Source: a virus (lineage: Duplodnaviria > Caudoviricetes). Taken from it: a stretch of 64,000 nt of DNA. Below the pieces are notes generated by a model that was not told the DNA's origin, made no database searches, and saw nothing but the letters and a program-made list of their open reading frames with translations. Numbering within the stretch: position 1 is the first letter of the stretch; each line of letters starts with the position of its first letter. Of the stretch, positions 31,401 to 48,938 are shown in pieces. The translations under genes were made by a program, and so were the position numbers. The stretch lies in IMG/VR virus record IMGVR_UViG_3300045413_000192, positions 1,077-65,076 of that record. One strand, given 5' to 3'.

Positions 31401-32109
31401 GAATTGTAGTTAAATCTTCAGATGGTGCAACAGCGCCAGTTGATTCAACGTACGACCTAGGCGAAAAGCCCTCCGCTTCTTTTTCACGGCGCGACTGAGC
31501 AAGAAAATTTTTAGCGCCTGCTTTTTCTTTGCCTTCAATACCTTGAACAACCCTGGTTTGAAATTTATTTTCTTTATCAATTTCCCGCTGTTCTTCTAAA
31601 ATCTCATTTAATAACTCACCTGCTTTTACTTCAGCGATAATTTCTTGCTCAATACCGGTTAATTCAGCAAAAGAACCAGGCTGACGGCGCGGCAGTGGCG
31701 AAGTTTGTCCTGTAAGCGGTTGACGCAAAACTGCCGGCTCCTGTGGAGTCGGTAAATCACGTACCAAACTGCCAACCGCACCAAAATCTTGAGTTTGCGC
31801 GGCAGTTTGAGCCCTTGCTACCGTTTCGGGAAGAATTGTTTCTACCTTAGGTGCGGCAACTGAAGGTTTGGCACGTAAACCACGACGTGCCGCAAGAGTT
31901 GCTAAACCTGCACCAACGAGTGTGGCTCCTACTGCCAGTGCACTGCCAAAGTCAAACCCCTCATTTTCTTTTGGCGCAGCGTTTCGAAGTTGACCACGGC
32001 GAAATGCCACGACTTCTGGAGCAAGTTTTGCACGTTCTTCCGGATCATCAGGAAGCTGCGTTCCAGTGGCACGGCTATAAGCGTAGAAATCAGCCGGAGA
32101 AATCGCCAT
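28492..32109 (-). CDS. Large hypothetical protein (1205 aa), probably virion internal
   Basis: First gene of the late arm, with a single hydrophobic segment near the N-terminus. Confidence 0.7.
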   Translation of the reverse strand: MAISPADFYAYSRATGTQLPDDPEERAKLAPEVVAFRRGQLRNAAPKENEGFDFGSALAVGATLVGAGLATLAARRGLRAKPSVAAPKVETILPETVARAQTAAQTQDFGAVGSLVRDLPTPQEPAVLRQPLTGQTSPLPRRQPGSFAELTGIEQEIIAEVKAGELLNEILEEQREIDKENKFQTRVVQGIEGKEKAGAKNFLAQSRREKEAEGFSPRSYVESTGAVAPSEDLTTIQINNTPVVANQQINAVESGEDQFTGRQLREMQRDTDTTRTGKTSPVSLPIVFEREASPLTDAAGSVLPVGDSMVAKLNRNKTRRQLALNQARATLGLAETDAPLPEGFSMVPEGEVSAAAGELAAQKLREAKQRKQKQSPSPITQEWKEILFDESGLLNKEILAKNLGDEKVFPGQLANMLIEGMSSSSTVRALSTGNFNDIEIDPDIHRVATQHVKENLLKFDDADSIKRYLISGGIAGEYQPPSTKGFGYTGTESMPTQLVSISKKGGEELVLVSGPRTSSRRTRSDLEPLFFDPDTKTLIRKSDIGATQSSEAVAGTGIGAEIGQAVAFVPREDVAGFVNLPGVNASGPENVNKSQGVGYAIGGLKELGSIGSGQISSKDWKAIRQRRKELGLKPTETNAEIEGMLERARGRDDVDLSVQPRPLFRDPYDALEKGNVKLSRNNTPYLVVDALMLKANPGLETYLSADPNYSNFLFANPATGQNFTSVYEATNTYNRLANNVNAKLITGAESRIAALEKGENLEVQVTVRGNKLVKTALNPNFVVDQVVRRNSRGETIVSNVTLSQAIRNQLLFPIVRDSKGMPMRGQPLLQEHTLIDEQGQEGAKYFKQTRYLVPENKTYVDKETGEIRAQILGFGDTELAVAPTTLNPSDTRLTAKNNYLFLQGVNNALEEITGQRIKVIDDAIYLGREKGFEFMGGPSKNPVLREALTVANTLTQTSEKSRIRMQEPEKDFGLGERYGLGARQSERPRRNVPSGIQLTNLPVQKVVFTEMQDPSSVEMRSVTQLKDTGRTMTLALTPEVIGGKRLAAFVLDYTQTSGKPMRIAAFNQAVLDLSNQLGADPAELSRQAATFLRGSREQARVGPVMSQGRRALQAMDRPSPAEEIAQTIAEYDFNETIGSDIESVLQGPQVPLDVDMELTARQAQRARVEPPGTTEKFTIDDQMLSNQMNRLMAQAGRRAAKRRRR

Positions 32110-32210
32110 TTGAGGTTATTGACATTATTTTTATCTGTCAACATTCTATTGTTGAAAAATCTTAGAAGTAAAGGCGTTATAGTTGAGAAATAAATCAATT
32201 TGAACCAGGG

Positions 32211-32423
32211 ATGGATGCCGGTACGCGCCAAAAACGGGTCGAAGCACTTGAGGCAATTAAAAATAAAGCCGTTGACATGGCTAAAGAAGGGCGGGATTCT
32301 TTAGAAGTACGCGATTTTGTAACTTCAGCTAAAAAAGAATTGGCTTATGAGTTGCCTGATCAAGAAGCTTTTAACAAAGCAATGAATGCAACGCTCGCAT
32401 ACAAGGCAAAGAAAGGAAAATAA
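32211..32423 (+). CDS. Hypothetical helical protein
   Basis: 70-aa ORF followed by a terminator. Confidence 0.65.
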   Translation: MDAGTRQKRVEALEAIKNKAVDMAKEGRDSLEVRDFVTSAKKELAYELPDQEAFNKAMNATLAYKAKKGK

Positions 32424-32448
32424 TAAATTTTTCTAATCACAGATGACA

Positions 32449-32474
32449 CCGGGGAGAAAGACCCCGGCTTTTTT
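32449..32474 (+). terminator. Rho-independent terminator
   Basis: CCGGGG-agaaaga-CCCCGG followed by CTTTTTT. Confidence 0.8.
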
Positions 32475-32649
32475 GTGTAAAAACTTGGGGAAAGTATTTG
32501 AATTTACTACATTATTGCACTTTTACTTTAACAAAAGCGCCTTTATAAGGCCAAATAGGGTACAAAATTACCTGACGCTTCCACTATTACCCGTCTGATT
32601 GCGATTATGGGGAGAAAAAAAATAATAGGGGTGTAGGTACGTGAAGTAT

Positions 32650-32690
32650 CGGGGGCTGCGCATCCGTACCACGCAGAGTTCCATTGCATT
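32650..32690 (+). ncRNA. Leader pseudoknot family P-I, copy 1 (copy 2 at 33244-33285)
   Basis: GGGGGCTGCGCATCC-N-ACGCAGAGTTCCATTGCATT repeated at an identical distance from the ATG. Confidence 0.55.
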
Positions 32691-32697
32691 CAGTTCA

Positions 32698-32904
32698 ATG
32701 TTTACTGTGACTTTCCTTGATTATGGTTGTCCTGACTTTGGAGGGCAAGAGTATTACGAAGACGAGAAGTTGTTTTCTAACTGGCAACAAGCCCAGGAGT
32801 TTATCAACAGCCTTGAAGATTATGAATTCATAGCAGCTGCATATCACTTCAGCTGTAATGCCTGTTACGGTTTGTTTTGCTTTGAAGACGAGATTCCATT
32901 CTGA
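32698..32904 (+). CDS. Small acidic early protein ending EDEIPF
   Basis: ATG 32698 follows the leader element. Its TGA stop lies inside the following tRNA-like element. Confidence 0.65.
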   Translation: MFTVTFLDYGCPDFGGQEYYEDEKLFSNWQQAQEFINSLEDYEFIAAAYHFSCNACYGLFCFEDEIPF

Positions 32905-32944
32905 GTAACAGGCGTGATGCCGGGGGATCGAATCCCCCACTCAG
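32901..32944 (+). ncRNA. tRNA-mimic element type A, copy 1
   Basis: CTGAGT/ACTCAG stem stacked on GGGGG-ATCGAAT-CCCCC, plus a GGC-GTGAT-GCC side hairpin. Confidence 0.7.
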
Positions 32945-32947
32945 TAT

Positions 32948-32974
32948 TGCCCACTGTGGAGATGGGCACCACAC
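32948..32974 (+). ncRNA. TGCC pseudoknot family P-II (other copies 34055-34080, 34441-34467, 34725-34751)
   Basis: TGCCY/RGGCA stem whose loop GYGG pairs with downstream CCRC. Covaries across copies. Confidence 0.65.
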
Positions 32975-32992
32975 TACGTTCAATTCAATTCA

Positions 32993-33154
32993 ATGGAAGA
33001 ATTACTTCGTCAAATTGAAGTTGCTGAGCGTGAAGCCGATGAAGCAGTCGGTGATCTTGATCGACACAATGCTGAACGTAAAGTTCAATGGCTTCACTTC
33101 TGTCTCGAGACATATAAGCAACGTCACTACTTTGGTGATTTATTTGCTGAGTAA
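32993..33154 (+). CDS. Small early protein (53 aa)
   Basis: MEELLRQIEVAEREADEAVGDLDRHNAERKVQWLHFCLETYKQRHYFGDLFAE*. Its TAA stop lies inside the tRNA-like element. Confidence 0.65.
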   Translation: MEELLRQIEVAEREADEAVGDLDRHNAERKVQWLHFCLETYKQRHYFGDLFAE

Positions 33155-33190
33155 CAGGCGTGATGCCGGGGGATCGAATCCCCCACTCAG
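33147..33190 (+). ncRNA. tRNA-mimic element type A, copy 2
   Basis: Identical 44-nt copy of 32901-32944. Confidence 0.7.
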
Positions 33191-33292
33191 TGCCAGGTGC
33201 AATGCCTGGCTATTGTGGTTGCAATTATAGATTAGTTGTGATATAGGGGGCTGCGCATCCTAACAACGCAGAGTTCCATTGCATTTTGTACC

Positions 33293-33529
33293 ATGACTGA
33301 CCGCATCGAGCGTTTTGAGCAAGCAGCGAACATGCTGGTTGCAGGCAAGAAGGTATCTGTTGCCGTTAAGGAGTTACCGCAAGGTAACGTGCAAGCTTGG
33401 CTTGCCGAGTTGAAAGGTTACGTCATTTTTGGACACACAGATCCAGGTGATGAAGTTACCTATCGAGTGTACGTTACTGTCAAGGAAGGCAAAGCAGTTG
33501 CTTCGGCAAAGCTTGTCTACGTTGATTGA
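33293..33529 (+). CDS. Small early protein
   Basis: ATG follows P-I copy 2. Confidence 0.65.
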   Translation: MTDRIERFEQAANMLVAGKKVSVAVKELPQGNVQAWLAELKGYVIFGHTDPGDEVTYRVYVTVKEGKAVASAKLVYVD

Positions 33530-33662
33530 CGATTGTACTTTCCCCTGGGCAACCAGGGGTTCCTACAGCCCTCAAATAGTTTGATGCTCCGTATCGCGCC
33601 TTAAATTGGGTCAAGCTCCCCGCTACAACAGCGGTCAAGAGAAGACTGTGTCCTGTGATACT

Positions 33663-33687
33663 CGTCAAGCTGGACGTTAAACGCAGC
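33663..33687 (+). ncRNA. CGTC pseudoknot family P-III (other copies 37110-37136, 39874-39900, 48076-48102, 48989-49015, 52247-52275)
   Basis: YGTC-NN-S2-(T)-GACR-YTAAAC-S2'. Both stems covary across copies. Confidence 0.7.
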
Positions 33688-33764
33688 AGGCAACTTAGGT
33701 GATAGGTCACCAGGTGTTCTTGGCATCCACACTTCAGTAGCGTTTGTTTTCTGACAACTGACTC

Positions 33765-33811
33765 TTGCACTGAGGGGCTTCGGCCCTTCTCTGCAGGACT
33801 CAACATCCTGC
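33765..33811 (+). ncRNA. Bistable TGCA switch element (other copies 34000-34052, 34988-35040, 35315-35387, 35877-35949)
   Basis: The TGCAGNN strand can pair with either an upstream or a downstream complementary strand. All three strands covary. Confidence 0.65.
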
Positions 33812-33830
33812 TCACATTTTATTTGACACC

Positions 33831-33998
33831 ATGACTGCACTAAACATTCGGAAGAACATGGGTGAACTTGTCCAGTTAGTTGGACAAATCATACCATCCA
33901 ACATGAAAGATAAGCTGCACGACAAAGTATTTGAATACCGTATTCGTGCAGCTGCTTTACTAATGCCTAAAGGATCAAGCATTCATATCGAAGGCTGA
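33831..33998 (+). CDS. Small early protein (55 aa)
   Basis: MTALNIRKNMGELVQ...KGSSIHIEG*, flanked by two switch elements. Confidence 0.6.
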   Translation: MTALNIRKNMGELVQLVGQIIPSNMKDKLHDKVFEYRIRAAALLMPKGSSIHIEG

Positions 33999-34054
33999 TT
34001 CCTGCATCAAGCCCTGTCATTGCACAGGGTTTCTTGCAGGATTTATTCCTGCGC
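33991..34054 (+). repeat. 64-nt exact direct repeat (second copy 34979-35042)
   Basis: AAGGCTGATTCCTGCATCAAGCCCTGTCATTGCACAGGGTTTCTTGCAGGATTTATTCCTGCGC occurs twice. Confidence 0.9.
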
Positions 34055-34094
34055 GCCTCCAGCGGAGATAGGCACCGCACACATGGAGGGATCC

Positions 34095-34397
34095 ATGCAA
34101 GTCCACGTTCTCAGGCAGTATCACCCTGATTACTGCATTGATGACAAAGCTATTGCTTACTACGCCTCTAGGCGTAAAGCAGAAGCTAAGGCTGTAGAGT
34201 TATCAACTCGGCAAGCCAAGGAAGAAGAACTGGATTGGATTGCCAATCCTTGCGAATGCGGCGAACGCGATTGTTATCTCCGTGACAAGTTCTTTTACAA
34301 ATGGTCGGTGGAAAATCTTGATCTTGTTGAGCTTTCTATGCGGGAGCTTATGAAGATTGAGTTGGCTGATGCCGACGAAAATGAGTTCAGCAGCTGA
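34095..34397 (+). CDS. Early hypothetical protein
   Basis: GGAGG SD before ATG 34095. Contains a CECGERDC cysteine cluster. Confidence 0.65.
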   Translation: MQVHVLRQYHPDYCIDDKAIAYYASRRKAEAKAVELSTRQAKEEELDWIANPCECGERDCYLRDKFFYKWSVENLDLVELSMRELMKIELADADENEFSS

Positions 34398-34438
34398 TCC
34401 GTCAAAGCGGGTCCGGAGGTGCAAACCCTCCGGCAGTT
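34392..34438 (+). ncRNA. tRNA-mimic element type B, copy 1 (copy 2 at 34676-34722)
   Basis: ARCTG/CAGTT stem, CCGT-CAAA-GCGG hairpin and a 7-bp stem with TGCAAAC loop. The stem covaries between copies. Confidence 0.65.
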
Positions 34439-34483
34439 ATTGCCTCCAGCGGAGATAGGCACCGCACTGCCGTTGTTAGAAAC

Positions 34484-34681
34484 ATGGATTGCAATTATGC
34501 AATACCTGCAACCTATTGCGGAGATCGTTTAGTTCCGATTGAAACAGTGCAAGCTGTTATTGCGGAGCTTTATCAAATGGCACTGTCTTTTACTTCTGAT
34601 GAAGGGCCTCCAGGGCCAGAAGAACTTGGTCAAGCTGTTGTGTGGCTTGATGAGCATTGCGCTCTTCGCATGAAAAACTGA
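34484..34681 (+). CDS. Small early protein
   Basis: Flanked by RNA modules. Confidence 0.6.
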   Translation: MDCNYAIPATYCGDRLVPIETVQAVIAELYQMALSFTSDEGPPGPEELGQAVVWLDEHCALRMKN

Positions 34682-34765
34682 TCCGTCAAAGCGGGTGGAC
34701 AGATGCAAACCCTGTCCCAGTTATTGCCTCCAGCGGAGATGGGCACCGCACAACAGGAGATTCCT

Positions 34766-34942
34766 ATGAAAATCCAAATTGAACAAGACATCACTGGAAC
34801 TGGAACTTATATCTGGGGACTGGAGGATGGCCCAGAACATATTGATAAGTTCTCTGGATTTGCCGATACTCTTGGTGAATGTTTTGAAAAGATCATCCGT
34901 CATCAAACTATAAATGCTATGGGATATGTGACAAGCACATGA
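34766..34942 (+). CDS. Small early protein
   Basis: CAGGAG SD before ATG 34766. Confidence 0.6.
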   Translation: MKIQIEQDITGTGTYIWGLEDGPEHIDKFSGFADTLGECFEKIIRHQTINAMGYVTST

Positions 34943-35070
34943 ACTTGCACTTGATTGGAAAAGGCAAGTTGATTATCAAAGGCTGATTCCTGCATCAAGC
35001 CCTGTCATTGCACAGGGTTTCTTGCAGGATTTATTCCTGCGCTACACCACACGACACCAACTGGATTCCC

Positions 35071-35313
35071 ATGACTCCTAAAGTTGTTGAACGTTTATTG
35101 ACACAGGACGCTCGCTTGCTTGCCAGGAGAGATTCCCCTGTCATTGACCAAGACATTGAGTGCGACCGTCAGGCTGCACTTGATTTGTTCTTTGCTTGGC
35201 AAGATGGACTGGCTGAGTTCCAAGAACTTATGCCGTTCGTCGCCATTCTTCAACGCAAAGTTGATCTCAACCGTGCGTTGTTGAAGTATGAGCAAGAACA
35301 ACTCTTGGCCTGA
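35071..35313 (+). CDS. Small early protein
   Basis: MTPKVVERLL..., after a switch element. Confidence 0.6.
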   Translation: MTPKVVERLLTQDARLLARRDSPVIDQDIECDRQAALDLFFAWQDGLAEFQELMPFVAILQRKVDLNRALLKYEQEQLLA

Positions 35314-35410
35314 CTTCTGCACTCAACCCTTCCGTCATGGTACGTATGTACTACGACGGTGGGTTTTCTGCAGGACTCACCTCCTGCTAGTCCCTTACTT
35401 CTCATTTATC

Positions 35411-35806
35411 ATGACCAACGCTAACGCTAAAAAGCTGGCTGATTTCCAGCAAATTACTGTCCATGGCCGCATTACATACATGGAGGTGGTTGATTACCAG
35501 CAACAGCAGTTTCTATCTGTTGTCTTGGCACACACCGTATCTGAAAATACAGATGTACGTGTGAAGTTTACCAACTCCAATGGTTTGCTTACGGCTTATG
35601 GCAACGGTAATCTTGTTGTTGGTCAGGAGCTTACGGTCAGCGGCAGTATCAAGGGCATCCGTAGCTTCTACATGAAGGAGGATGAGCTTGTGCCGCTAAA
35701 GTATCCTGAGCTACAGCTTCGTTGCACTGGCTACATCTTTGGTTCAAAACCTCAGGTTAAATCTGAGGTTGCCGTTGAACCCACACTGGAAGAGATTCCG
35801 TTCTGA
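35411..35806 (+). CDS. OB-fold SSB-like protein
   Basis: FQQITVHGRI...LVVGQELTVSGSI, with acidic tail LEEIPF. Confidence 0.65.
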   Translation: MTNANAKKLADFQQITVHGRITYMEVVDYQQQQFLSVVLAHTVSENTDVRVKFTNSNGLLTAYGNGNLVVGQELTVSGSIKGIRSFYMKEDELVPLKYPELQLRCTGYIFGSKPQVKSEVAVEPTLEEIPF

Positions 35807-35974
35807 CGTTACTTGCACGTCAGTGTATTTACGAGCATGCTCGTAAGTTTACTGGCGTGCTTGTAAATCAGCAGACGACTGCACTTAACCCTTCCGTTGA
35901 TACGAATTCGTATCGGCGGTGGGTTTTCTGCAGTCCTCACCAGGACTGCTGCTGTCTACACAACTACAACCCAC

Positions 35975-36172
35975 ATGAAACGCATTGCTCGACTAGGCAA
36001 GAATCAATTCATTCAACTTGATTCTTATGGGTCTCAACATGAGACGCCTGTTGCCAACTTCTTTGTCGGCTTTTTCGTTACTGCCATTGCAGTCATAACG
36101 ATGTGCGCCGCAGTTGGCATCGACATCACTAATCTCAACCAAGGACAAACCAATGAGCACATTAAGCGCTGA
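35975..36172 (+). CDS. Small membrane protein
   Basis: One hydrophobic helix, FFVGFFVTAIAVITMCAAVGI. Confidence 0.55.
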   Translation: MKRIARLGKNQFIQLDSYGSQHETPVANFFVGFFVTAIAVITMCAAVGIDITNLNQGQTNEHIKR

Positions 36173-36503
36173 CACTGCTCTCATCCAAGACCGGATGAAT
36201 GGCTTGATCAAAGCAATGATTCGTAAGTTTGAAAAGCAACATCCAACGATGTACGGCTACCTCGACTTTGAGATTGAACGTGGTACAAAATATTACAAGA
36301 TTATTGAGATAACCAATGCAAATGAGACGAGACCATCAAGGTCTATCCATGCATTTGTATCACGGCAAACAGGTGCCGTTTACAAACCGGCCAGCTGGAA
36401 AGCTCCGGCTGCTCACGTCCGCTACCAACTGCTGGATGACGAGTCCTATGAGGCATGTCTACACAATGCCGACTCCGCAGGCAGTTACCTCTATATGAGG
36501 TGA
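36153..36503 (+). CDS. Conserved early phage protein
   Basis: GTKYYKI...SIHAFV..TGAVYKPASWKAPA.HVRY, a motif common in phage early genes. Confidence 0.75.
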   Translation: MSTLSADTALIQDRMNGLIKAMIRKFEKQHPTMYGYLDFEIERGTKYYKIIEITNANETRPSRSIHAFVSRQTGAVYKPASWKAPAAHVRYQLLDDESYEACLHNADSAGSYLYMR

Positions 36504-36628
36504 CAGAGGTTGGACCCCACTCCCCCCACGACCACTACCGGTAGTGTGGGAAGGGGTGCTGGGGACTAAACCTAGTACTTGCATCCAGTAGATTTACAGC
36601 TATTCTCGTATCGAACTCCATTCAACTC

Positions 36629-37051
36629 ATGGACACCCTCAGCCAACTCGACATCCAAAACCCTGATCACGTCTCGGTGATTACTAGGGAAGGCAGAGTC
36701 ACGATCTCTGTCTTGAAAGACGGAACATCGGTGACCCTCGGACTGCCGATCCGTCAGGTAATCAACACAACTCCTCGGCCTGCACTCCAGCAGGACGGTG
36801 AGATGGCACTGGTCAAGAAGATTGTTTCCGGTGAATCTCCACGGAGAATTAAACCACAAGCTTTCTGTAACGCCAAACTCTCCGAAGGAGATGTCCGCGA
36901 AATCAAGGGTGTTCTTGCAACGCCTTCAATCATGAAGGAATTCAAGAGCCTTAATCGCGCTTACATCGACATCGGTAAGGCGTACGGCGTTAGCCAACAC
37001 ACCATCTCCAACATCCACAAGGGAAAGGCCTGGTCTCACATCCAAGCCTGA
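36629..37051 (+). CDS. Protein with C-terminal HTH
   Basis: NAKLSEGDVREIK...IGKAYGVSQHTISNIHKGKAWSHI, an HNH-associated HTH type. Confidence 0.7.
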   Translation: MDTLSQLDIQNPDHVSVITREGRVTISVLKDGTSVTLGLPIRQVINTTPRPALQQDGEMALVKKIVSGESPRRIKPQAFCNAKLSEGDVREIKGVLATPSIMKEFKSLNRAYIDIGKAYGVSQHTISNIHKGKAWSHIQA

Positions 37052-37164
37052 CCTACGGGATTAGTACACACGTACTTGGTATCACCTCGGATTGGGGTGG
37101 TATCACCTTCGTCCTGAGTATGACGTTAAACTGCTCAACACCTTGTACTACACCAATTCAAACT

Positions 37165-37359
37165 ATGACTCAACTCGACAACAACTACAACGCTGACTTG
37201 CTTGACGCCATGGCTGACATGGCCTATCAACAAGAGCAAGCCATGCGTGAATCTCAACAGACCGAATGGTCACTCATTGAAGACAACGGTACTTTCGTTG
37301 GCTTCCAAACAACAAATGAATGGGAGGGCATCATCTATGACGATGAAGATGCATCGTGA
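37165..37359 (+). CDS. Small acidic protein
   Basis: MTQLDNNY..., after a P-III pseudoknot. Confidence 0.55.
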   Translation: MTQLDNNYNADLLDAMADMAYQQEQAMRESQQTEWSLIEDNGTFVGFQTTNEWEGIIYDDEDAS

Positions 37360-37425
37360 TAATAATTATCATTTCATTGAAGTAATCATTGCCCTTACGT
37401 CAATCCTCATTACAACACTCCTGTC

Positions 37426-37782
37426 ATGCTTCACCCCATCACTGCACAAATCGCTGAACAAATCACTGGCTACATCCCCTTCTCCGAAGAAGAAGGACAA
37501 GAACAGTTCCAAACAGACATCACCTACGATCCAAGCAAGTTCGACGTCGAAGACGAAGACACGCACCCGGTCAACGGCAGTGTCTACATCAACAAGCAAG
37601 GCGTCTACCGTTGTTACTGGAAACCCCAGTGCAGCGAAGAAGAACTTGAAGGATGGTACAATGTCCCAACCAACGAGGAAATCGAAGAGTGGTGCCTTGA
37701 CTCAGTCTGCTTCACTCCAGGGGACGACGAAGTCGAACCCGATCATCCCGACAGTTGGCTCTCCATCCTTGGCTTGATCTAA
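37426..37782 (+). CDS. Acidic early protein
   Basis: Ends ...PT.EEIEEW..DSVC.TP.DD.VEPDHPDSWLSILGLI. Confidence 0.7.
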   Translation: MLHPITAQIAEQITGYIPFSEEEGQEQFQTDITYDPSKFDVEDEDTHPVNGSVYINKQGVYRCYWKPQCSEEELEGWYNVPTNEEIEEWCLDSVCFTPGDDEVEPDHPDSWLSILGLI

Positions 37783-37796
37783 TCAGTTACAACACT

Positions 37797-38045
37797 ATGA
37801 GCACTCAGGTTCAAAACGAAGTTCCTGCATTGTCTATCAATCAAAGGAATCTTTATCTTTACTACTTAAATCACAAGCGTAAACACCCGCGTGCTCCATG
37901 TTTTGTACCAAAAGTTTCAGTCCAAGAAAATTGTATGGCTGACTACTTAAAAATACTTGAACATCTTGAGAAGATGAATTTAATACGTGTAGATCGCACC
38001 AGTGATAACTACACGGGTTGGATCATCTTTGATCCACAGAGGTAA
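37797..38045 (+). CDS. Small winged-helix-like protein
   Basis: LSINQRNLY...YLKILEHLEKMNLIRVDR. Confidence 0.55.
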   Translation: MSTQVQNEVPALSINQRNLYLYYLNHKRKHPRAPCFVPKVSVQENCMADYLKILEHLEKMNLIRVDRTSDNYTGWIIFDPQR

Positions 38046-38055
38046 CTACTACCAA

Positions 38056-38106
38056 CCTGGGCCTCTGCAATTGAGAACTTTTCTCAATAGCGGTGTAAGT
38101 CCCAGG
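38056..38106 (+). ncRNA. Internal-loop hairpin element (second copy 39319-39376)
   Basis: YCTGGG-CMT-CTGY...GCRG-TGTAAGT-CCCAGG with unrelated apical hairpins. Confidence 0.55.
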
Positions 38107-38135
38107 CTTTTCATTCCATTGCACACCAACTAACC

Positions 38136-38435
38136 ATGGAACAAACCAAGAGGTATCCCGAGTTTTCCACCAATGAATACGCGCATTTGCAGCGGATCAT
38201 CAAGGAACTTAAAGAAGTCCTCGAGCGTGATGGTAAACGTCATGAAATGGATCAAGACTTGACTCCATCTATGCGTGCACTGCTAGAGGACGAGATCATT
38301 CCAGTGCTTGAAAATGAACTGGATTATGATCCAACTCCTCAATACCTTTACGATAATACAGATGGTGAACCACCAGTCACTGCAGCGGAAACGCACCATG
38401 CAGCCTGGGTTCAACACCAGGAACTTCATCGGTAA
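38136..38435 (+). CDS. Hypothetical protein
   Basis: ORF after an A/C-rich leader. Confidence 0.65.
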   Translation: MEQTKRYPEFSTNEYAHLQRIIKELKEVLERDGKRHEMDQDLTPSMRALLEDEIIPVLENELDYDPTPQYLYDNTDGEPPVTAAETHHAAWVQHQELHR

Positions 38436-38571
38436 CTGACCTACCGCAAAGTTAAGAAGTTGTTAAGACATGGGTGTACCCCTACAACCCCGCAGGGGAG
38501 TACCAGGAAGAAACCTTATCTTCTATTAGAGTAACCCATGTCTTATCCACCATTCATTCCATTTAATCACC

Positions 38572-38778
38572 ATGCCTAACAACACTCCCCGCATACCAGA
38601 CTCCATTGATAAGCAACGACTTTGTGCTATGCAATTCGTAGCAAAGCTGAAAGAATCAGCCGACAAGTACGGTGTTGGATTCGTTGGTGGATTCATTGCA
38701 CCCAACGGTGAGAAATTCATGATGTCCAACATGTCTGAAGAAGACACCCAATTCCTTTTGCCAGATGACCTCAAATGA
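38572..38778 (+). CDS. Hypothetical protein
   Basis: ORF coupled to the next gene. Confidence 0.65.
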   Translation: MPNNTPRIPDSIDKQRLCAMQFVAKLKESADKYGVGFVGGFIAPNGEKFMMSNMSEEDTQFLLPDDLK

Positions 38779-39125
38779 AACCTAAACGCATTGGTTCAAA
38801 AACCAACGTAAGTTCAATGTCTGACTACGATGATCGCAACGTCATCATTGATGATGTAATCGAAAAGTTTAACTTTGAAAAGGTTCACGTCGTAATGGTT
38901 GCTCTGGACTGGGTTTGGCAAACCACAGAAGGTGATGGACTTGCTGTGCCTTCTGTTGCCAGGCTCAAGGCCAGGGCTCGTCACTTGTTGCGTGAAGCCA
39001 TCAACCATAAACATGTTGCAACCGGAGGGTTTGTAGCACGTTATTTTCCCAAGGTTGATGACGAACCGGAGCAATTTACTTTGCAGTTCATTCTTGAATC
39101 CGTTGATTCTGACTGTTATGACTAA
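38775..39125 (+). CDS. Hypothetical protein
   Basis: FNFEKVH.VM.ALDW.W...TGGF, a phage-type motif. Confidence 0.65.
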   Translation: MKPKRIGSKTNVSSMSDYDDRNVIIDDVIEKFNFEKVHVVMVALDWVWQTTEGDGLAVPSVARLKARARHLLREAINHKHVATGGFVARYFPKVDDEPEQFTLQFILESVDSDCYD

Positions 39126-39315
39126 ACGCTCAGCCTTTAACTTCGACAAAACTATTGCCGGAGTCAACATCACAGAACGTGGGATCAGGTCGTTTACCAA
39201 ATCGATACGGCTTGGTCCCATACAATTCACTCTTAATGCCAGACCATCAGGTATGCTTGGGTCAATCTCGATCCCAGGCACTGGCTTGAGCAAACGAAAC
39301 ATTAAATTATTCTAA
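39118..39315 (+). CDS. DUF4236-like small protein
   Basis: FTKSIRLGP...N...SISIPGTGLS. Confidence 0.55.
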   Translation: MTKRSAFNFDKTIAGVNITERGIRSFTKSIRLGPIQFTLNARPSGMLGSISIPGTGLSKRNIKLF

Positions 39316-39401
39316 AGATCTGGGCATCTGTAGTCGTTGTGCACACAGCACAGAAAGACGCAGTGTAAGTCCCAGGTTTTACTGTATTTTCACACAACAC
39401 C

Positions 39402-39608
39402 ATGACATACGAAGAGTTTTATCAACTCACTGAAAACATGATGAAAGGTGGATCGTTTGTGTCCACGCTTGCTCAAGCAATGCGGTATGCAGATCCCAAT
39501 AACCGTGAGCGGTTGCTTAATGCATTTCCCGATTTGGTCCAGCGTTATGGTCCAAATGGAATGTTTGAAACCGCACGTGTTATGGCCCAGTCCCTTATCA
39601 AGAACTGA
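39402..39608 (+). CDS. Small phage protein
   Basis: GGSFV..LA.A...AD..NR.RL..AFPDL..RY motif. Confidence 0.7.
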   Translation: MTYEEFYQLTENMMKGGSFVSTLAQAMRYADPNNRERLLNAFPDLVQRYGPNGMFETARVMAQSLIKN

Positions 39609-39610
39609 CC

Positions 39611-39868
39611 ATGTCAATCCTTGCAATTGAAGACACTTTTATTAATGGATCTGATGTCACAGTTACAGCAGTGGTTGAGGACATGCGTTTGCTTTATCGG
39701 GCAACGTATTACGAACCTGAAGAATGGGCTCCTGCTCTTTGCTCAGCAACTTTCCAGTTGGATGAGGGAGAACAAATCCCTCTTGATGAAGATAGCTTCT
39801 GCAGTTATCTTGATCAGCTCGATCTTTACTGGCAACTCGTCGACACCACTGACTGCGACGTAGACTGA
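39611..39868 (+). CDS. Small acidic protein
   Basis: In-operon ORF. Confidence 0.65.
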   Translation: MSILAIEDTFINGSDVTVTAVVEDMRLLYRATYYEPEEWAPALCSATFQLDEGEQIPLDEDSFCSYLDQLDLYWQLVDTTDCDVD

Positions 39869-39931
39869 TTCATCGTCCTGGGCATGACGTTAAACTGCCT
39901 ACCACACCACATCAACACCACACATCACACC

Positions 39932-41725
39932 ATGCAATTCCAACTTCCCCAACACTTGCAAACAGAACTGCTTGCCTACGATCCCAAACTTAAAGCCTTG
40001 ACTCGTCAAGCTTCATCTAAAACCACCACCAAGAAAGCTAAATATCCGCACGGTAACGTCAATGATTTGATTCCTGTTGAAGTCGTACGTGTATCACTGC
40101 AACAAGATGCGGTCGACAACATTAACGCTAATCCAGCATCAAGTCGTTATCATTTGTTTACCAAGCTTGTGGATGTGGCAACTCCGCAAGCACGCACCAA
40201 AGCTACTGCTATTCTCTATCATTACGAACAATGCTGGTACGCAGCCTGGCTTCCGCCTAAAGGCAAGGAGCAAGACTACGTTTACGGTTATGCTATTGCT
40301 TTTAAGGACACAGCGGCAGCACAAAAGACGGTGTCATCAAACTACTGGCGCAACCGCAGCGACTATCCAATCAAGCAATATGGTCGTACACAGTTTTATG
40401 TGTACACAAAATATGTAACAACACAAGACATTATCAATGGTGATGACACGCGTAACTGGCGTGGCTCTCGTGTTGCCAGCTACTATCAGAAGTCTAAGGA
40501 CTTGGCAAAAGCGGTTAATAAATTTGAAGAATCATTGAAAGAATCTATTCCTTGCTGGTCAGATTCACATGACATGTTTGGTCGTATCAAGGCAACTACA
40601 ATTTTTCATGCATTGGAGATTCCTTGTTTATCAAAAATAACTATTGATTCAAGTTTGCAATTTACATCACAAAACTTAATGGATGTTTTGCAAAAGATTA
40701 GTGACGCTGACGATAGCTTTGGACATCTTTATGCTTTATCTCATAGCAAAAAGATTCTTGAGGTCAAAGACGTATTAAATACTCCATTCTTTCGTCGTTG
40801 GATGCAAGAACACTGTGATCAAGCAGTGCAAGCATACAACAATCCTGAAACACAACTGCGTACTGATATCACCAAACACTACAAAATTATCGTAGCTTTT
40901 GCTGAAGCTGTTAGTTACGTTCGTAAGTTTTGGCCTGATTGTCCTGTTGATTTCTTTCAATCACACATAGATCAATTACTTGGTACACGCTTGCGTGATT
41001 ACTCATCCGACTGTACTGAACAATGGTTGCGTCAGCACATGCCTGTTGCATCATTCTTTCAGATGCTACGTAAGTTCCATGACCAAGCCAAGGTTGACTA
41101 CGAACGCAACCATCATTCTTATGCCAAGACTGAATATGGTATTGCTGTCTTTGGGTTTGGTGATTGGGACGATACAGTCTCCATGCTCTCTCGCATTTTA
41201 AATAAATGCAAAGAAACAGATCAAACCTTTGCACCACCAAAGCGTTGGCGTATTGAAGAGTTCCATGATTATGTTCAAGCTGAATCTTGGAAACTAACAA
41301 ATCCAAATGAGATGTTGCCCCAGGATTTATTTCCTGAACCAACCAAGATTGAACTTAACAATCAAACATGGACATTCTTCCAGCCCCATGACACACATCA
41401 ACTAGCTATGTGGGGTCAGGCCGTACGCAACTGCGTTGGCTCTGCATCACACTACGCTGATGATTGCAAGAAGAAGAAGCACTTTATTGTGCTTTGTATG
41501 ATTGACGGCAAACCTCAGTTCACCATTCAACTCACCGTTGATATGGGCATGATGTCCGTCAAGCAGATTGCTGGCATTGCTAACAAGCGTCTTGACGACA
41601 TCCAAAAGGATCAATACACCAAGGCATTTGGCTTGGCCTTGCAATCCCGTGAGGCTGCGCTAAAATCCCGACAACACAAACTGACCAGCCTTGGTCTCAG
41701 TATTTGGGGCTGGTCTTATTTATGA
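39932..41725 (+). CDS. PcfJ-like domain protein
   Basis: C-terminal EFHD...P....QL..WGQAVRNCVG...Y...FTI.L......KQI.G..N. Start taken at MQFQLP, after the C/A-rich leader. Confidence 0.75.
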   Translation: MQFQLPQHLQTELLAYDPKLKALTRQASSKTTTKKAKYPHGNVNDLIPVEVVRVSLQQDAVDNINANPASSRYHLFTKLVDVATPQARTKATAILYHYEQCWYAAWLPPKGKEQDYVYGYAIAFKDTAAAQKTVSSNYWRNRSDYPIKQYGRTQFYVYTKYVTTQDIINGDDTRNWRGSRVASYYQKSKDLAKAVNKFEESLKESIPCWSDSHDMFGRIKATTIFHALEIPCLSKITIDSSLQFTSQNLMDVLQKISDADDSFGHLYALSHSKKILEVKDVLNTPFFRRWMQEHCDQAVQAYNNPETQLRTDITKHYKIIVAFAEAVSYVRKFWPDCPVDFFQSHIDQLLGTRLRDYSSDCTEQWLRQHMPVASFFQMLRKFHDQAKVDYERNHHSYAKTEYGIAVFGFGDWDDTVSMLSRILNKCKETDQTFAPPKRWRIEEFHDYVQAESWKLTNPNEMLPQDLFPEPTKIELNNQTWTFFQPHDTHQLAMWGQAVRNCVGSASHYADDCKKKKHFIVLCMIDGKPQFTIQLTVDMGMMSVKQIAGIANKRLDDIQKDQYTKAFGLALQSREAALKSRQHKLTSLGLSIWGWSYL

Positions 41726-41943
41726 CTCACAACTACACTGATGATCAACTGCTTGCCATGGCAATGGCAAACATTGGTGAATTCATTCACGACAATTCTC
41801 CGCATTATGTTTTAATCGAAGAAGATCCACGTAACGAAGAAGACTACGATACTTGGGCTTATGGCACTGAGCCGTTGCCCCAAGATCATACTTGGCGTTC
41901 AACTTCCATTGAAGTTGATGTAAGTCCAAGTGAGCCCGAGTAG
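41722..41943 (+). CDS. Small acidic protein
   Basis: MTHNYTDD.... Its stop lies within the tRNA. Confidence 0.6.
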   Translation: MTHNYTDDQLLAMAMANIGEFIHDNSPHYVLIEEDPRNEEDYDTWAYGTEPLPQDHTWRSTSIEVDVSPSEPE

Positions 41944-42009
41944 CCCAACGGAAGAGGCAAACGACTTAAAATCGTTCCAGCGTGAGTTCAAATCTCACCT
42001 CGGGTACCA
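41934..42009 (+). tRNA. trnL: tRNA-Leu (anticodon UAA), 76 nt, short variable loop, encoded CCA
   Basis: GCCCGAG/CTCGGGT acceptor, AACGA-CTTAAAA-TCGTT anticodon arm, GTGAG-TTCAAAT-CTCAC T arm and ACCA end. Confidence 0.9.
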
Positions 42010-42443: not shown

Positions 42444-42806
42444 ATGATTGGCCAATCTCAAAACGATCCCATTGATCTTGATCTAGTCGATAAAGTCATT
42501 GCCATGGTTCCAAAAGAAACATGGTCTGTTGTTATTGATGCCATTGTCTCCAACATTGTTGATGCAATGCCAAGTACAGTACTTGAAAAACTAACAGGAT
42601 CAATAGATGACTTTGATCGTGCAGAGGAAATCCTTTTGGATTATTACCGCATTGATGGTCGCCATGAAGATTTGATTGTTGATGCATTCAAGATTCTTGG
42701 CGCAGAAAATACTTTGTATCTTTTGGATTCATTACAGCTTGATAAATATGTAGAGATCCGTCATGGTTCTACAGATACTGCACCGTGTTCTATTGAACCC
42801 CAATGA
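42444..42806 (+). CDS. Acidic hypothetical protein
   Basis: ORF coupled to the next gene. Confidence 0.6.
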   Translation: MIGQSQNDPIDLDLVDKVIAMVPKETWSVVIDAIVSNIVDAMPSTVLEKLTGSIDDFDRAEEILLDYYRIDGRHEDLIVDAFKILGAENTLYLLDSLQLDKYVEIRHGSTDTAPCSIEPQ

Positions 42807-48122: not shown

Positions 48123-48938
48123 ATGAACTTCTTTGCCGGTTGCGCTCAACTTCTTGAAGATCCTCGGGAAGTTTTTACTGGCGCCAACTCAACTGCTATG
48201 CGTTGCATGATTAGCCTGCCGGCAGTCAGCACCAAGAAAGCAGATACTCCCATCGAACTTAACATTTACGGTAAGACGGCTGAACGTTTTGCTCGTTTGA
48301 AAAAGTACATGGGAATTTATCTGCATGATGCCATGTTGCGCTATGACTTAGATACCAGGCAGCTCTCGCTCCATGGCGGTGTGGTTGGCTTAGTTAATGC
48401 CGAAACATTTCCCATCTTAAACACTGTCATCCTTAGTGGACGCTGTGTTAAAGATGTTAATCATGAAGATGAACGTGCATTTAAAACCACGCCAAGTGGT
48501 TTGATGATTTGTAACCAGACGCTTGCTGTTAATACTGGGCGTAACCAATCGGATCTTTTTAACTTCTACGCCATCAATAGTGTGGAAGATAAACCTAACT
48601 ACGCAGAGCTTCTGTGTAATTTTACTCGCAAGGGAACTGGCCTTACCATTAAAGGACGGTTGGTCACTGACTCTTGGATTGACAAAGATTCAAAAGAAAA
48701 AAAGATTCAAACCAAAATTGAACTTAAGAAGATGACGCTGTCTCCCAAGGGGGCAGACGGTAGTAATACCATTCAAGTTCAAACAACTGTTGCATCAGAA
48801 CAAAGTGTTGGCTCACTGTGGGGTGGTCGCACCATGGATGAACAACCTGATCCCTGGGGTCATGGCAACAGCGGATTACCTGATCTACCTGGTCAATACG
48901 GAGATCCCAGCAAAGAAGACGACGACGCTCCGTTCTGA
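48123..48938 (+). CDS. ssb: Single-stranded DNA-binding protein with tandem OB folds
   Basis: LNTVILSGR...LAVN...F..KGTGLTIKGRL....W.DK plus an N-terminal second OB-like domain. Tail DDDAPF. Confidence 0.85.
   Translation: MNFFAGCAQLLEDPREVFTGANSTAMRCMISLPAVSTKKADTPIELNIYGKTAERFARLKKYMGIYLHDAMLRYDLDTRQLSLHGGVVGLVNAETFPILNTVILSGRCVKDVNHEDERAFKTTPSGLMICNQTLAVNTGRNQSDLFNFYAINSVEDKPNYAELLCNFTRKGTGLTIKGRLVTDSWIDKDSKEKKIQTKIELKKMTLSPKGADGSNTIQVQTTVASEQSVGSLWGGRTMDEQPDPWGHGNSGLPDLPGQYGDPSKEDDDAPF

Follow-up and report, generated by a model that had tools for sequence, protein, structure and literature searches.

The early operon of phage T7 contains repeated RNase III sites (R0.3 to R1.3, for example R1.1), hairpins located between cistrons and in the leader and built from a lower stem, an internal loop and an upper stem over about two helical turns. 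The internal loop limits the cut to one strand, and the upstream message keeps a 3' hairpin (PMC1540722, in part). A family of RNA elements with a comparable layout was found in an uncultivated lake cyanophage, in a 64,000-nucleotide (nt) stretch of the IMG/VR virus record IMGVR_UViG_3300045413_000192 (positions 1,077 to 65,076; hereafter, the window). Six copies occur within 33525-35953 of the window, and five of them are made of three matched strands, in the order a, internal loop, apical hairpin, a', short loop and a''. Strand a' can pair either with a, forming a long hairpin, or with a'', forming a short one. On comparative data alone, both of these mutually exclusive pairings are maintained by selection, and the element may be a processing site that refolds after being cut.

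The element shares with the T7 sites its position and its order of lower stem, internal loop and upper stem. It differs from them in showing no sequence likeness, in a cyanobacterial host and in a symmetric loop of pyrimidine mismatches. The T7 sites are not known to have a third strand able to recapture the 3' strand of their lower stem.

A strand with two exclusive partners is also found in type I toxin mRNAs, such as hok of plasmid R1 and aapA1 of Helicobacter pylori, and the hok family displays coupled covariation of these strands. Trimming of such mRNAs frees a strand for its second partner (PMC5416894, in part). In hok and aapA1 it is 3' trimming that unmasks the ribosome-binding site of a toxin, whereas here an intercistronic cut leading to a 5' hairpin is proposed, and the element is accompanied by neither a toxin nor an antisense RNA. 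The ompA, ermC and aprE leaders are 5'-terminal stem-loop stabilisers of bacterial mRNAs. Their arrangement, with a hairpin within a few nt of the 5' end and an unstructured leader after it, is that of the proposed role of a':a''. Those hairpins stand at primary 5' ends, whereas here processing would create the end, with the hairpin masked until the cut. PeSL cassettes of T4-type phages are likewise conserved repeats that border small early open reading frames (ORFs) in a variable part of the genome (PMC2839356, PMC4122927, both in part). PeSLs carry an early promoter, whereas the elements contain no sigma-70-like promoter, and the available portions of those two papers describe no three-strand design for PeSLs. 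By analogy, the element would act chiefly as a T7 RNase III site does, with the added refolding after processing that is known from type I toxin mRNAs.

By sequence, the element is a member of no catalogued family. Rfam at gathering scores returned a single tRNA from the whole window, and at E values up to 1 it gave, for the region 32000-40500, just a 16.5-bit Ocean-VII fragment away from the elements. Literature searches on S-EIV1, on phage RNase III processing of early mRNAs and on cyanophage RNase E processing gave no description of the element. As far as we are aware, almost nothing is known about post-transcriptional control of cyanophage early genes. With 95 distinct sequences and two covariance models, the family is suitable for Rfam submission as it stands and offers a compact, sequence-defined case of two exclusive helices under selection.

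Two exclusive helices and their covariation

Relatives were sought in a sample of the viral collection. A search with the 131-amino-acid (aa) protein encoded between copies 4 and 5 of the window retrieved 17 related viral contigs (44-81% identity), nearly all with the element on one or both sides of the gene. A pattern scan of viral contigs gave at least 119 stretches, about a third of which were real by eye, the rest being chance matches in unrelated viruses. A sequence-free scan for any three-strand layout, based on 6-mers, was swamped by dozens of chance matches on both strands, and a covariance model was therefore adopted. This model, R1, was built from 33 copies (the five of the window and 28 from relatives) and was run on the relatives, with 41 loci from the pattern scan taken into the search; its 155 matches, from 60 loci, were reduced to 94 aligned rows that differ from one another. 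The distinct copies gathered numbered 95.

Four relatives that are 98-100% complete contain five, three, two and four copies, in each genome on one strand and within 0.4-2.5 kb, and a single copy was found in Synechococcus phage S-EIVl, whose host is Synechococcus PCC-A2c, at 42655-42719 of KJ410740. A blastn search of other cultured phages with copy 4 gave two chance fragments only. Bacterial genomes produced 12 pattern matches, against about 35 estimated by chance, and the single one that reached 21 bits with R1 was judged to be a chance match.

The initial annotation had derived three-strand covariation from one copy, copy 5, and the relatives display it repeatedly, with 15 versions of the a' heptamer among the 95 copies. 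About ten of the non-reference versions, by reading, are accompanied by a compensating change in both partners, examples being TACAGGA, TGCAGAC, TGCAGAG, TGCAGGG, TGCAGTC, TGTAGGC and TGTAGTC. In the AACAGGA class (six copies), a'' alone followed the change and a C-A mismatch was left in a. The covariance search suggested in the initial annotation thus found homologues that keep the third strand, with at least five of six pairs in 88 of the 95 copies.

In the 94 distinct rows, a:a' is 95.4% paired and both sides are changed at five of the seven pairs. A MAFFT seed alignment, made without fitting to any structure, gave 97.3% pairing over the ten basal pairs of the long helix (UGA:UCA plus a:a'), with double changes at four pairs. 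The a':a'' structure is carried by a second covariance model, R2; after realignment to it, 107 distinct rows showed 89.8% pairing, with both sides changed at five of the six pairs. For each of the two helices, none of 500 column shuffles attained the observed pairing or covariation score, a significance inflated by kinship among the sequences, and sliding the partner by 1-3 columns lowered pairing to 21-58%. An alignment-free test was added because alignments lean toward the structures used to fit them. The best 6-mer located 3-13 nt past a' paired at all six positions with its own a' in 83 of the 95 copies, whereas in combinations with a foreign a' such a match occurred in 855 of 6990.

Of 88 copies, 48 have a U-G wobble in a:a' and 23 have one in a':a''; on the opposite strand these would be C-A mismatches. 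When R1 was run on both strands of the whole window with filters off, copies 1-5 scored 50.1-62.4 bits and copy 6 scored 36.9 bits; the next-best matches in the window were the reverse strands of copies 3 and 2 (18.3 and 16.5 bits), and the remainder reached at most 9.1 bits. Because of the strand-specific wobbles and the weak reverse-strand scores, the structure belongs to RNA in the gene direction, and the element is, as judged from these sequence features, an RNA of the + strand.

The initial annotation had also called the element bistable, a term taken here to mean that the two folds lie within about 1 kcal/mol of each other and are both populated. Energies were predicted by comparing the fold with a'' blocked and the fold with a blocked. 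The long hairpin came out as the more stable, by 3.8 +/- 2.4 kcal/mol on average (88 copies; range -11.6 to +0.8), its advantage in copies 1 to 5 of the window being 5.0, 4.2, 4.5, 3.5 and 1.1 kcal/mol. The mean predicted probability was 0.94 for the central a:a' pair and 0.057 for an a':a'' pair. Among the window copies the predicted a':a'' share was 0.0004-0.018 in copies 1-4, that is, below 2%, and 0.20 in copy 5; in the family it exceeded 5% in 17 of 88 copies and was at most 5% in 71, while at least four copies passed 50%. As an equilibrium property, bistability is thus not predicted for most copies, and the second fold therefore requires that strand a be taken away or covered. For an RNA with a' at its 5' end, a hairpin from the first or second base is predicted, with -6.7 to -16.8 kcal/mol among the copies listed.

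Copies in the window and their relation to genes

The initial annotation had placed five copies on the + strand, and all five lie there with the strands quoted; the total is six, and the sixth lacks the third strand. Copies 1-5 have the long hairpin (a:a', internal loop and apical hairpin) as their minimum-energy fold, and each folds better than 200 of 200 shuffles (z -3.8 to -6.1). For a degenerate pattern made from copies 4 and 5, 100 shuffles gave an expected match count of 0.00.

Copy 1 (33757-33815, +; 57.5 bits) carries a at 33763-33769, a' at 33792-33798 and a'' at 33806-33811, with the sequences TCTTGCA, TGCAGGA and TCCTGC. Its apical hairpin is capped by UUCG, its minimum free energy is -25.3 kcal/mol (z -6.1), its UGA closes no ORF, and a leader of 19 nt separates it from the ATG at 33831. 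Copy 2 (33994-34056, +; 50.1 bits) has a at 34000-34006, a' at 34035-34041 and a'' at 34047-34052 (TCCTGCA, TGCAGGA, TCCTGC). The base of its helix holds the stop codon of ORF 33831-33998, and downstream of it come a second small fold, the D1/D4 repeat, and then the next gene. Copy 3 (34982-35044, +; 51.4 bits), assigned to repeat family D2, is 95% identical to copy 2 and has the same three strand sequences, at 34988-34994, 35023-35029 and 35035-35040. The upstream ORF stops at 34942, 40 nt before it, and the next ATG is at 35071.

Copy 4 (35309-35391, +; 62.4 bits) has a at 35315-35321, a' at 35369-35375 and a'' at 35382-35387 (TTCTGCA, TGCAGGA, TCCTGC), with one G-U wobble in a and a long apical hairpin. 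The stop codon of ORF 35071-35313 lies inside its helix base, and the gene of the 131-aa protein begins with the ATG at 35411. In copy 5 (35871-35953, +; 59.0 bits) all three strands are altered together: GACTGCA at 35877-35883, TGCAGTC at 35929-35935 and GACTGC at 35944-35949, the a':a'' helix having seven pairs if G35943 is counted. The upstream gene ends at 35806, 70 nt before copy 5, and an ATG follows at 35975. A 65-nt nested hairpin (35803-35870, +; -38 kcal/mol, z -5.9) separates this copy from the stop codon of the 131-aa gene; in relatives L031 and L109 the stop codon directly abuts the element, with no such insert.

Copy 6 (33525-33588, +; 36.9 bits with R1, E 4.8e-8) forms the long hairpin only, from GATTGTA at 33531-33537 and TACAGCC at 33564-33570, and its best third-strand match extends to four of six positions. 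It begins at the stop codon that ends ORF 33293-33529, and downstream of it, in place of a gene, come about 170 nt of non-coding sequence. This ORF-free sequence between copies 6 and 1 (33589-33756, +) has parts, around GTCAAGCTGGACGTTAAACG and CTTGGCATCCACACTTCAGT, that recur in most of the eight related loci examined, and it may represent either a non-coding RNA or a control region where a transcription unit begins.

The long helix extends three pairs below a, where UGA pairs with UCA. The helix base of 92 of the 95 copies thereby includes a stop codon (TGA in 84, TAG or TAA in eight), which in 77 of the 95 closes an ATG-initiated ORF of at least 30 codons (median 79 codons). In the other 18, window copies 1, 3 and 5 among them, no long ORF ends at the helix, and all three strands are kept. 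The GA of that UGA is retained even where the stop codon is shifted or absent. The whole helix has 15-28 pairs (median 18) plus 1-4 mismatch steps.

All 95 copies contain an internal loop. The initial annotation had given it a fixed YYNA/TTYY form; it proved instead to be a symmetric run of 1-4 pyrimidine-pyrimidine mismatches, in 92 of the 95. The free variation noted for the apical hairpin was borne out, since the insert between a and a' measures 20-48 nt and is free in sequence. The apical loops are often of UUCG or GNRA type (TTCG in 15 copies, GCAA in nine).

An ATG occurs 6-38 nt past a'' in 86 of the 88 copies that have a third strand. The leader so delimited has a median length of 24 nt and contains 7% G, and a four-base Shine-Dalgarno core is present in just ten of the 86 leaders. 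The seven copies with fewer than five of six pairs all fall in the class of window copy 6, and six of them have no ATG nearby. In this class the apical stem is CCCCUGG-tetraloop-CCAGGGG or a close variant, and 170-250 nt of conserved non-coding sequence, with a small motif around GACGTTAAAC, follow downstream. Two more members of the class (L006:433 and L007:1006) reach five of six pairs through two wobbles and are counted among the 88. The distribution suggests that the third strand accompanies a following gene, as a 5'-hairpin role of a':a'' predicts, on what appear to be few independent events.

A candidate processing site and its alternatives

RNA decay in cyanobacteria is dominated by RNase E and RNase J. 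The element is regarded here, tentatively and with somewhat less than even confidence, as an intercistronic processing site like those of T7, in which a' would refold with a'' after the cut. It could quite plausibly be a conserved + strand RNA module of polycistronic early transcripts in S-EIV1-like cyanophages, placed either in the leader or where one cistron gives way to the next. From the codon placement, covariation and predicted energies of this + strand family, we infer a transcript that would be cut by an enzyme, refold and be stabilised.

The nascent RNA would form one quasi-continuous helix of 15-28 pairs, made of UGA:UCA, a:a', 1-4 pyrimidine mismatches and the apical hairpin. This long hairpin is predicted to form first, being energetically favoured and having a transcribed before a''. 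The helix would then be the substrate of a host endonuclease, presumed to be of the RNase III type by analogy with the T7 early sites, whose nick would fall in a single strand, on the 3' side of the mismatch loop. The upstream cistron would be left ending in the apical hairpin, with its 3' end protected. The downstream RNA would start with a' which, released from a, would pair with a'' and form a hairpin 0-4 nt from the new 5'-monophosphate end. The hairpin would keep RNase J and RNase E from degrading the next cistron by the route that depends on the 5' end, and a G-poor leader lacking a Shine-Dalgarno motif would continue past a'' up to the start codon. Since the new 5' end would be a' itself, burying that end in a hairpin needs a complement just downstream, which is a''. 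The three-way covariation, the strand order and the missing a'' where no gene follows would be explained in this manner, because a'' would bury the end made by the cut.

The options initially listed for the element were a riboswitch-like or protein-responsive switch and a transient RNase III-type site that refolds into a protective 5' hairpin, and it is the last of these that suits the anatomy best. Judged by analogy, the helix geometry, with a median of 18 pairs and a symmetric mismatch loop of 1-4 nt, would suit RNase III. Substrates of this enzyme typically span two helical turns, and internal loops can restrict the cut to one phosphodiester, leaving a protective 3' hairpin (PMC1540722, in part). 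In the cyanobacterium Synechocystis, RNA fragments with strong 5' structure resist the 5'-end-dependent pathway and need RNase E for their removal (PMC8682795, in part). In L012-L014, three of the 17 related loci, the slot ahead of the 131-aa gene is taken by a two-part spacer, D3 plus D4, in place of the element, and this use of the same slot suggests that the element consists of a 3' module and a 5' module. Ribosomes appear not to be needed, as window copies 1, 3 and 5 keep three strands with no ORF ending at the helix.

Several points weigh against a processing site of this kind. Alignments A2 and A3 were fitted to the same structures that were later counted on them. The shortest copies, with about 15-16 pairs, fall under the usual two turns (PMC1540722, in part). 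The enzyme is proposed by analogy, and the RNase III rules applied are those of the E. coli enzyme. The internal loops of the T7 sites are asymmetric, whereas those of the element are symmetric. The association of the third strand with a gene reflects few independent events because the copies that lack a third strand come from one orthologous class. A 5' hairpin as such needs no third strand, and other spacers of the same operon use separate folds. Finally, in the 17 copies with a predicted a':a'' share above 5%, a real equilibrium switch might operate.

If cutting and refolding do take place, the element would represent a new design principle for operon punctuation, usable in synthetic operons for defining the ends of cistrons, and it would explain the conserved folds that fill many intergenic gaps of these widespread freshwater phages. 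A broader proposal, which we consider somewhat doubtful, is that of a self-capping processing site: one module of 55-95 nt would both mark the cut for a host nuclease and reuse the freed strand as the 5' cap hairpin of the next message. Such a module would be an interchangeable part of a modular grammar of RNA punctuation which, together with tRNA-like and pseudoknot spacers, would set the stability of each early message separately in S-EIV1-like cyanophages.

It is unlikely, though conceivable, that translation toggles the two folds. A ribosome terminating at the helix-base stop codon would cover a, leaving a' to pair with a'', and the fold of the next leader, and with it the translation or stability of the next gene, would depend on upstream translation. 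The footprint of a terminating ribosome extends past the stop codon, and strand a, which begins one nt past it, is in reach. The mean gap of only 3.8 kcal/mol between the folds and the stop codons of 92 copies, 77 of which close long ORFs, agree with such a toggle. The 18 copies without a long ORF argue the other way, since they keep the three strands, and so does the GA of the UGA, conserved even where the stop is shifted or missing. The toggle would also have no evident output, because the start codon, at a median distance of 24 nt past a'', is left uncovered by both folds.

An equally improbable explanation involves passive hairpins and no cut. The long hairpin would be a barrier to 3' exonucleases or a weak terminator, a':a'' would serve other transcripts or form once a 5'-to-3' exonuclease had removed a, and the overlap of the two would be sequence economy. 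Stable apical hairpins, many with UUCG or GNRA-type loops, and the other folded spacers of the operon would fit this explanation, as would the inner stem of copy 5 which, with its U-rich tail, was the sole pass in a simple terminator scan. A run of at least three U follows the apical stem in just 16 of the 95 copies, however, and follows a'' in none of the window copies. The initial annotation had excluded a simple terminator on the lack of an immediate U-tract, and neither hairpin is followed by one; apart from the inner stem of copy 5, a G+C-rich hairpin with a U-tract right behind it, the mark of an intrinsic terminator, was not found for the element. Separate transcripts would moreover need a start, whereas none of the 12 promoter-like sites of the sigma-70 type in 32000-40500 (10.9 expected) lies inside an element. 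Independent hairpins, finally, need no match between a and a' across some ten sequence versions.

It is considered improbable that the element is a true two-state switch, with temperature, a small molecule or a protein of phage or host shifting the balance of the folds. It would account for the 17 of 88 copies with an appreciable a':a'' share, and the wobbles, which weaken a:a' more often than a':a'', could reflect tuning toward balance. Most copies are nevertheless predicted to be more than 94% in one fold. The riboswitch-like option of the initial annotation found no counterpart in the alignments: no unpaired core suited to ligand binding is conserved, and outside the helices the conserved positions are the 1-4 mismatched pyrimidines and the loops. 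A YUCA is also conserved, in the loop of the second hairpin, and its pairing with UGA accounts for this.

Least probable is a DNA-level recombination cassette that shuffles small early genes in the manner of PeSLs (a known precedent; PMC2839356, PMC4122927, both in part), with strands matched by template switching at quasi-palindromes and no selected RNA function: the element does bound small ORFs and adjoins different genes in different phages, but the wobbles are strand-specific, each complete genome searched has its copies on a single strand, stop and start codons stand at a fixed spacing from the element, the cassette has no promoter, and shuffling, which may be a side effect of the repeats, leaves the third strand unexplained.

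Genomic setting and other folded spacers

The window represents 64 kb of a 65-kb virus record estimated to be 82% complete. S-EIVl (KJ410740), to which its phage is related, was its sole relative among cultured phages, with 72.5% identity over 14% of the 7.9-kb early region. Large genes of the - strand, terminase among them, occupy the part left of about 32110; to the right there are small + strand genes and then a replication module with a family A DNA polymerase, ThyX and SSB. The three-strand elements are found in the first 4 kb of this rightward arm, among ORFs of 55-131 codons, most of which have no Pfam or PHROG match. A phage-encoded RNase III was not detected among 27 ORFs, part of the ORF set, that were scanned with Pfam.

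The 131-aa gene (35411-35806, +) is conserved and early, and it is flanked by the element in most relatives. Its product has an acidic tail ending in IPF, gave nothing credible in Pfam or PHROGs and only chance matches in a profile search of the PDB, and was modelled by AlphaFold as an all-beta protein with low confidence (pLDDT 44). An SSB label, suggested by the acidic IPF tail, was withdrawn because the SSB supported by Pfam is another gene, at 48123-48938. A tRNA-Leu gene (anticodon UAA) was identified at 41934-42009 (+), in the replication arm.

Other folded spacers are present in the window. An exact 45-nt repeat at 32901-32945 and 33147-33191 (+) folds like the top half of a tRNA, with an acceptor-like stem of 6-7 pairs, begun by the stop codon of the preceding ORF, and two arms, one a small side arm and the other a G5/C5 arm with seven loop bases, which presumably resemble a T-loop. 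The repeat was detected by neither ARAGORN nor the Rfam tRNA model, and it may be a signal for tRNA-processing enzymes.

Repeat D1/D4, at 32945-32977, 34055-34080, 34438-34470 and 34722-34754 (+), forms a small hairpin that precedes start codons by about 20 nt. Pairing is possible between four or five bases of its loop and the sequence just past the stem, with covariation in the window and in locus L012 (GCGG/CCGC, GUGG/CCAC and GCUGG/CCAGC), which suggests a small pseudoknot. Repeat D3, at 34394-34467 and 34678-34751 (+), has a basal stem that includes a stop codon and encloses two hairpins. The whole stem of the second hairpin differs between the two copies (CCGGAGG/CCUCCGG versus GGACAG/CUGUCC), and its loop of 7-9 nt is kept. 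It is this D3 module that stands in for the three-strand element upstream of the 131-aa gene in L012-L014.

The motif GACGTTAAAC occurs four times in the window, at 33673, 37122, 39886 and 52259 (+), against 0.11 occurrences expected. In the three copies that were folded (33673, 37122 and 39886) it forms part of a small hairpin's loop, and the stem of this hairpin covaries between UGAGUA/UGCUCA and UGGGCA/UGCCUA. A CGUC just upstream can pair with the GACG, giving a compact, pseudoknot-like fold ahead of genes.

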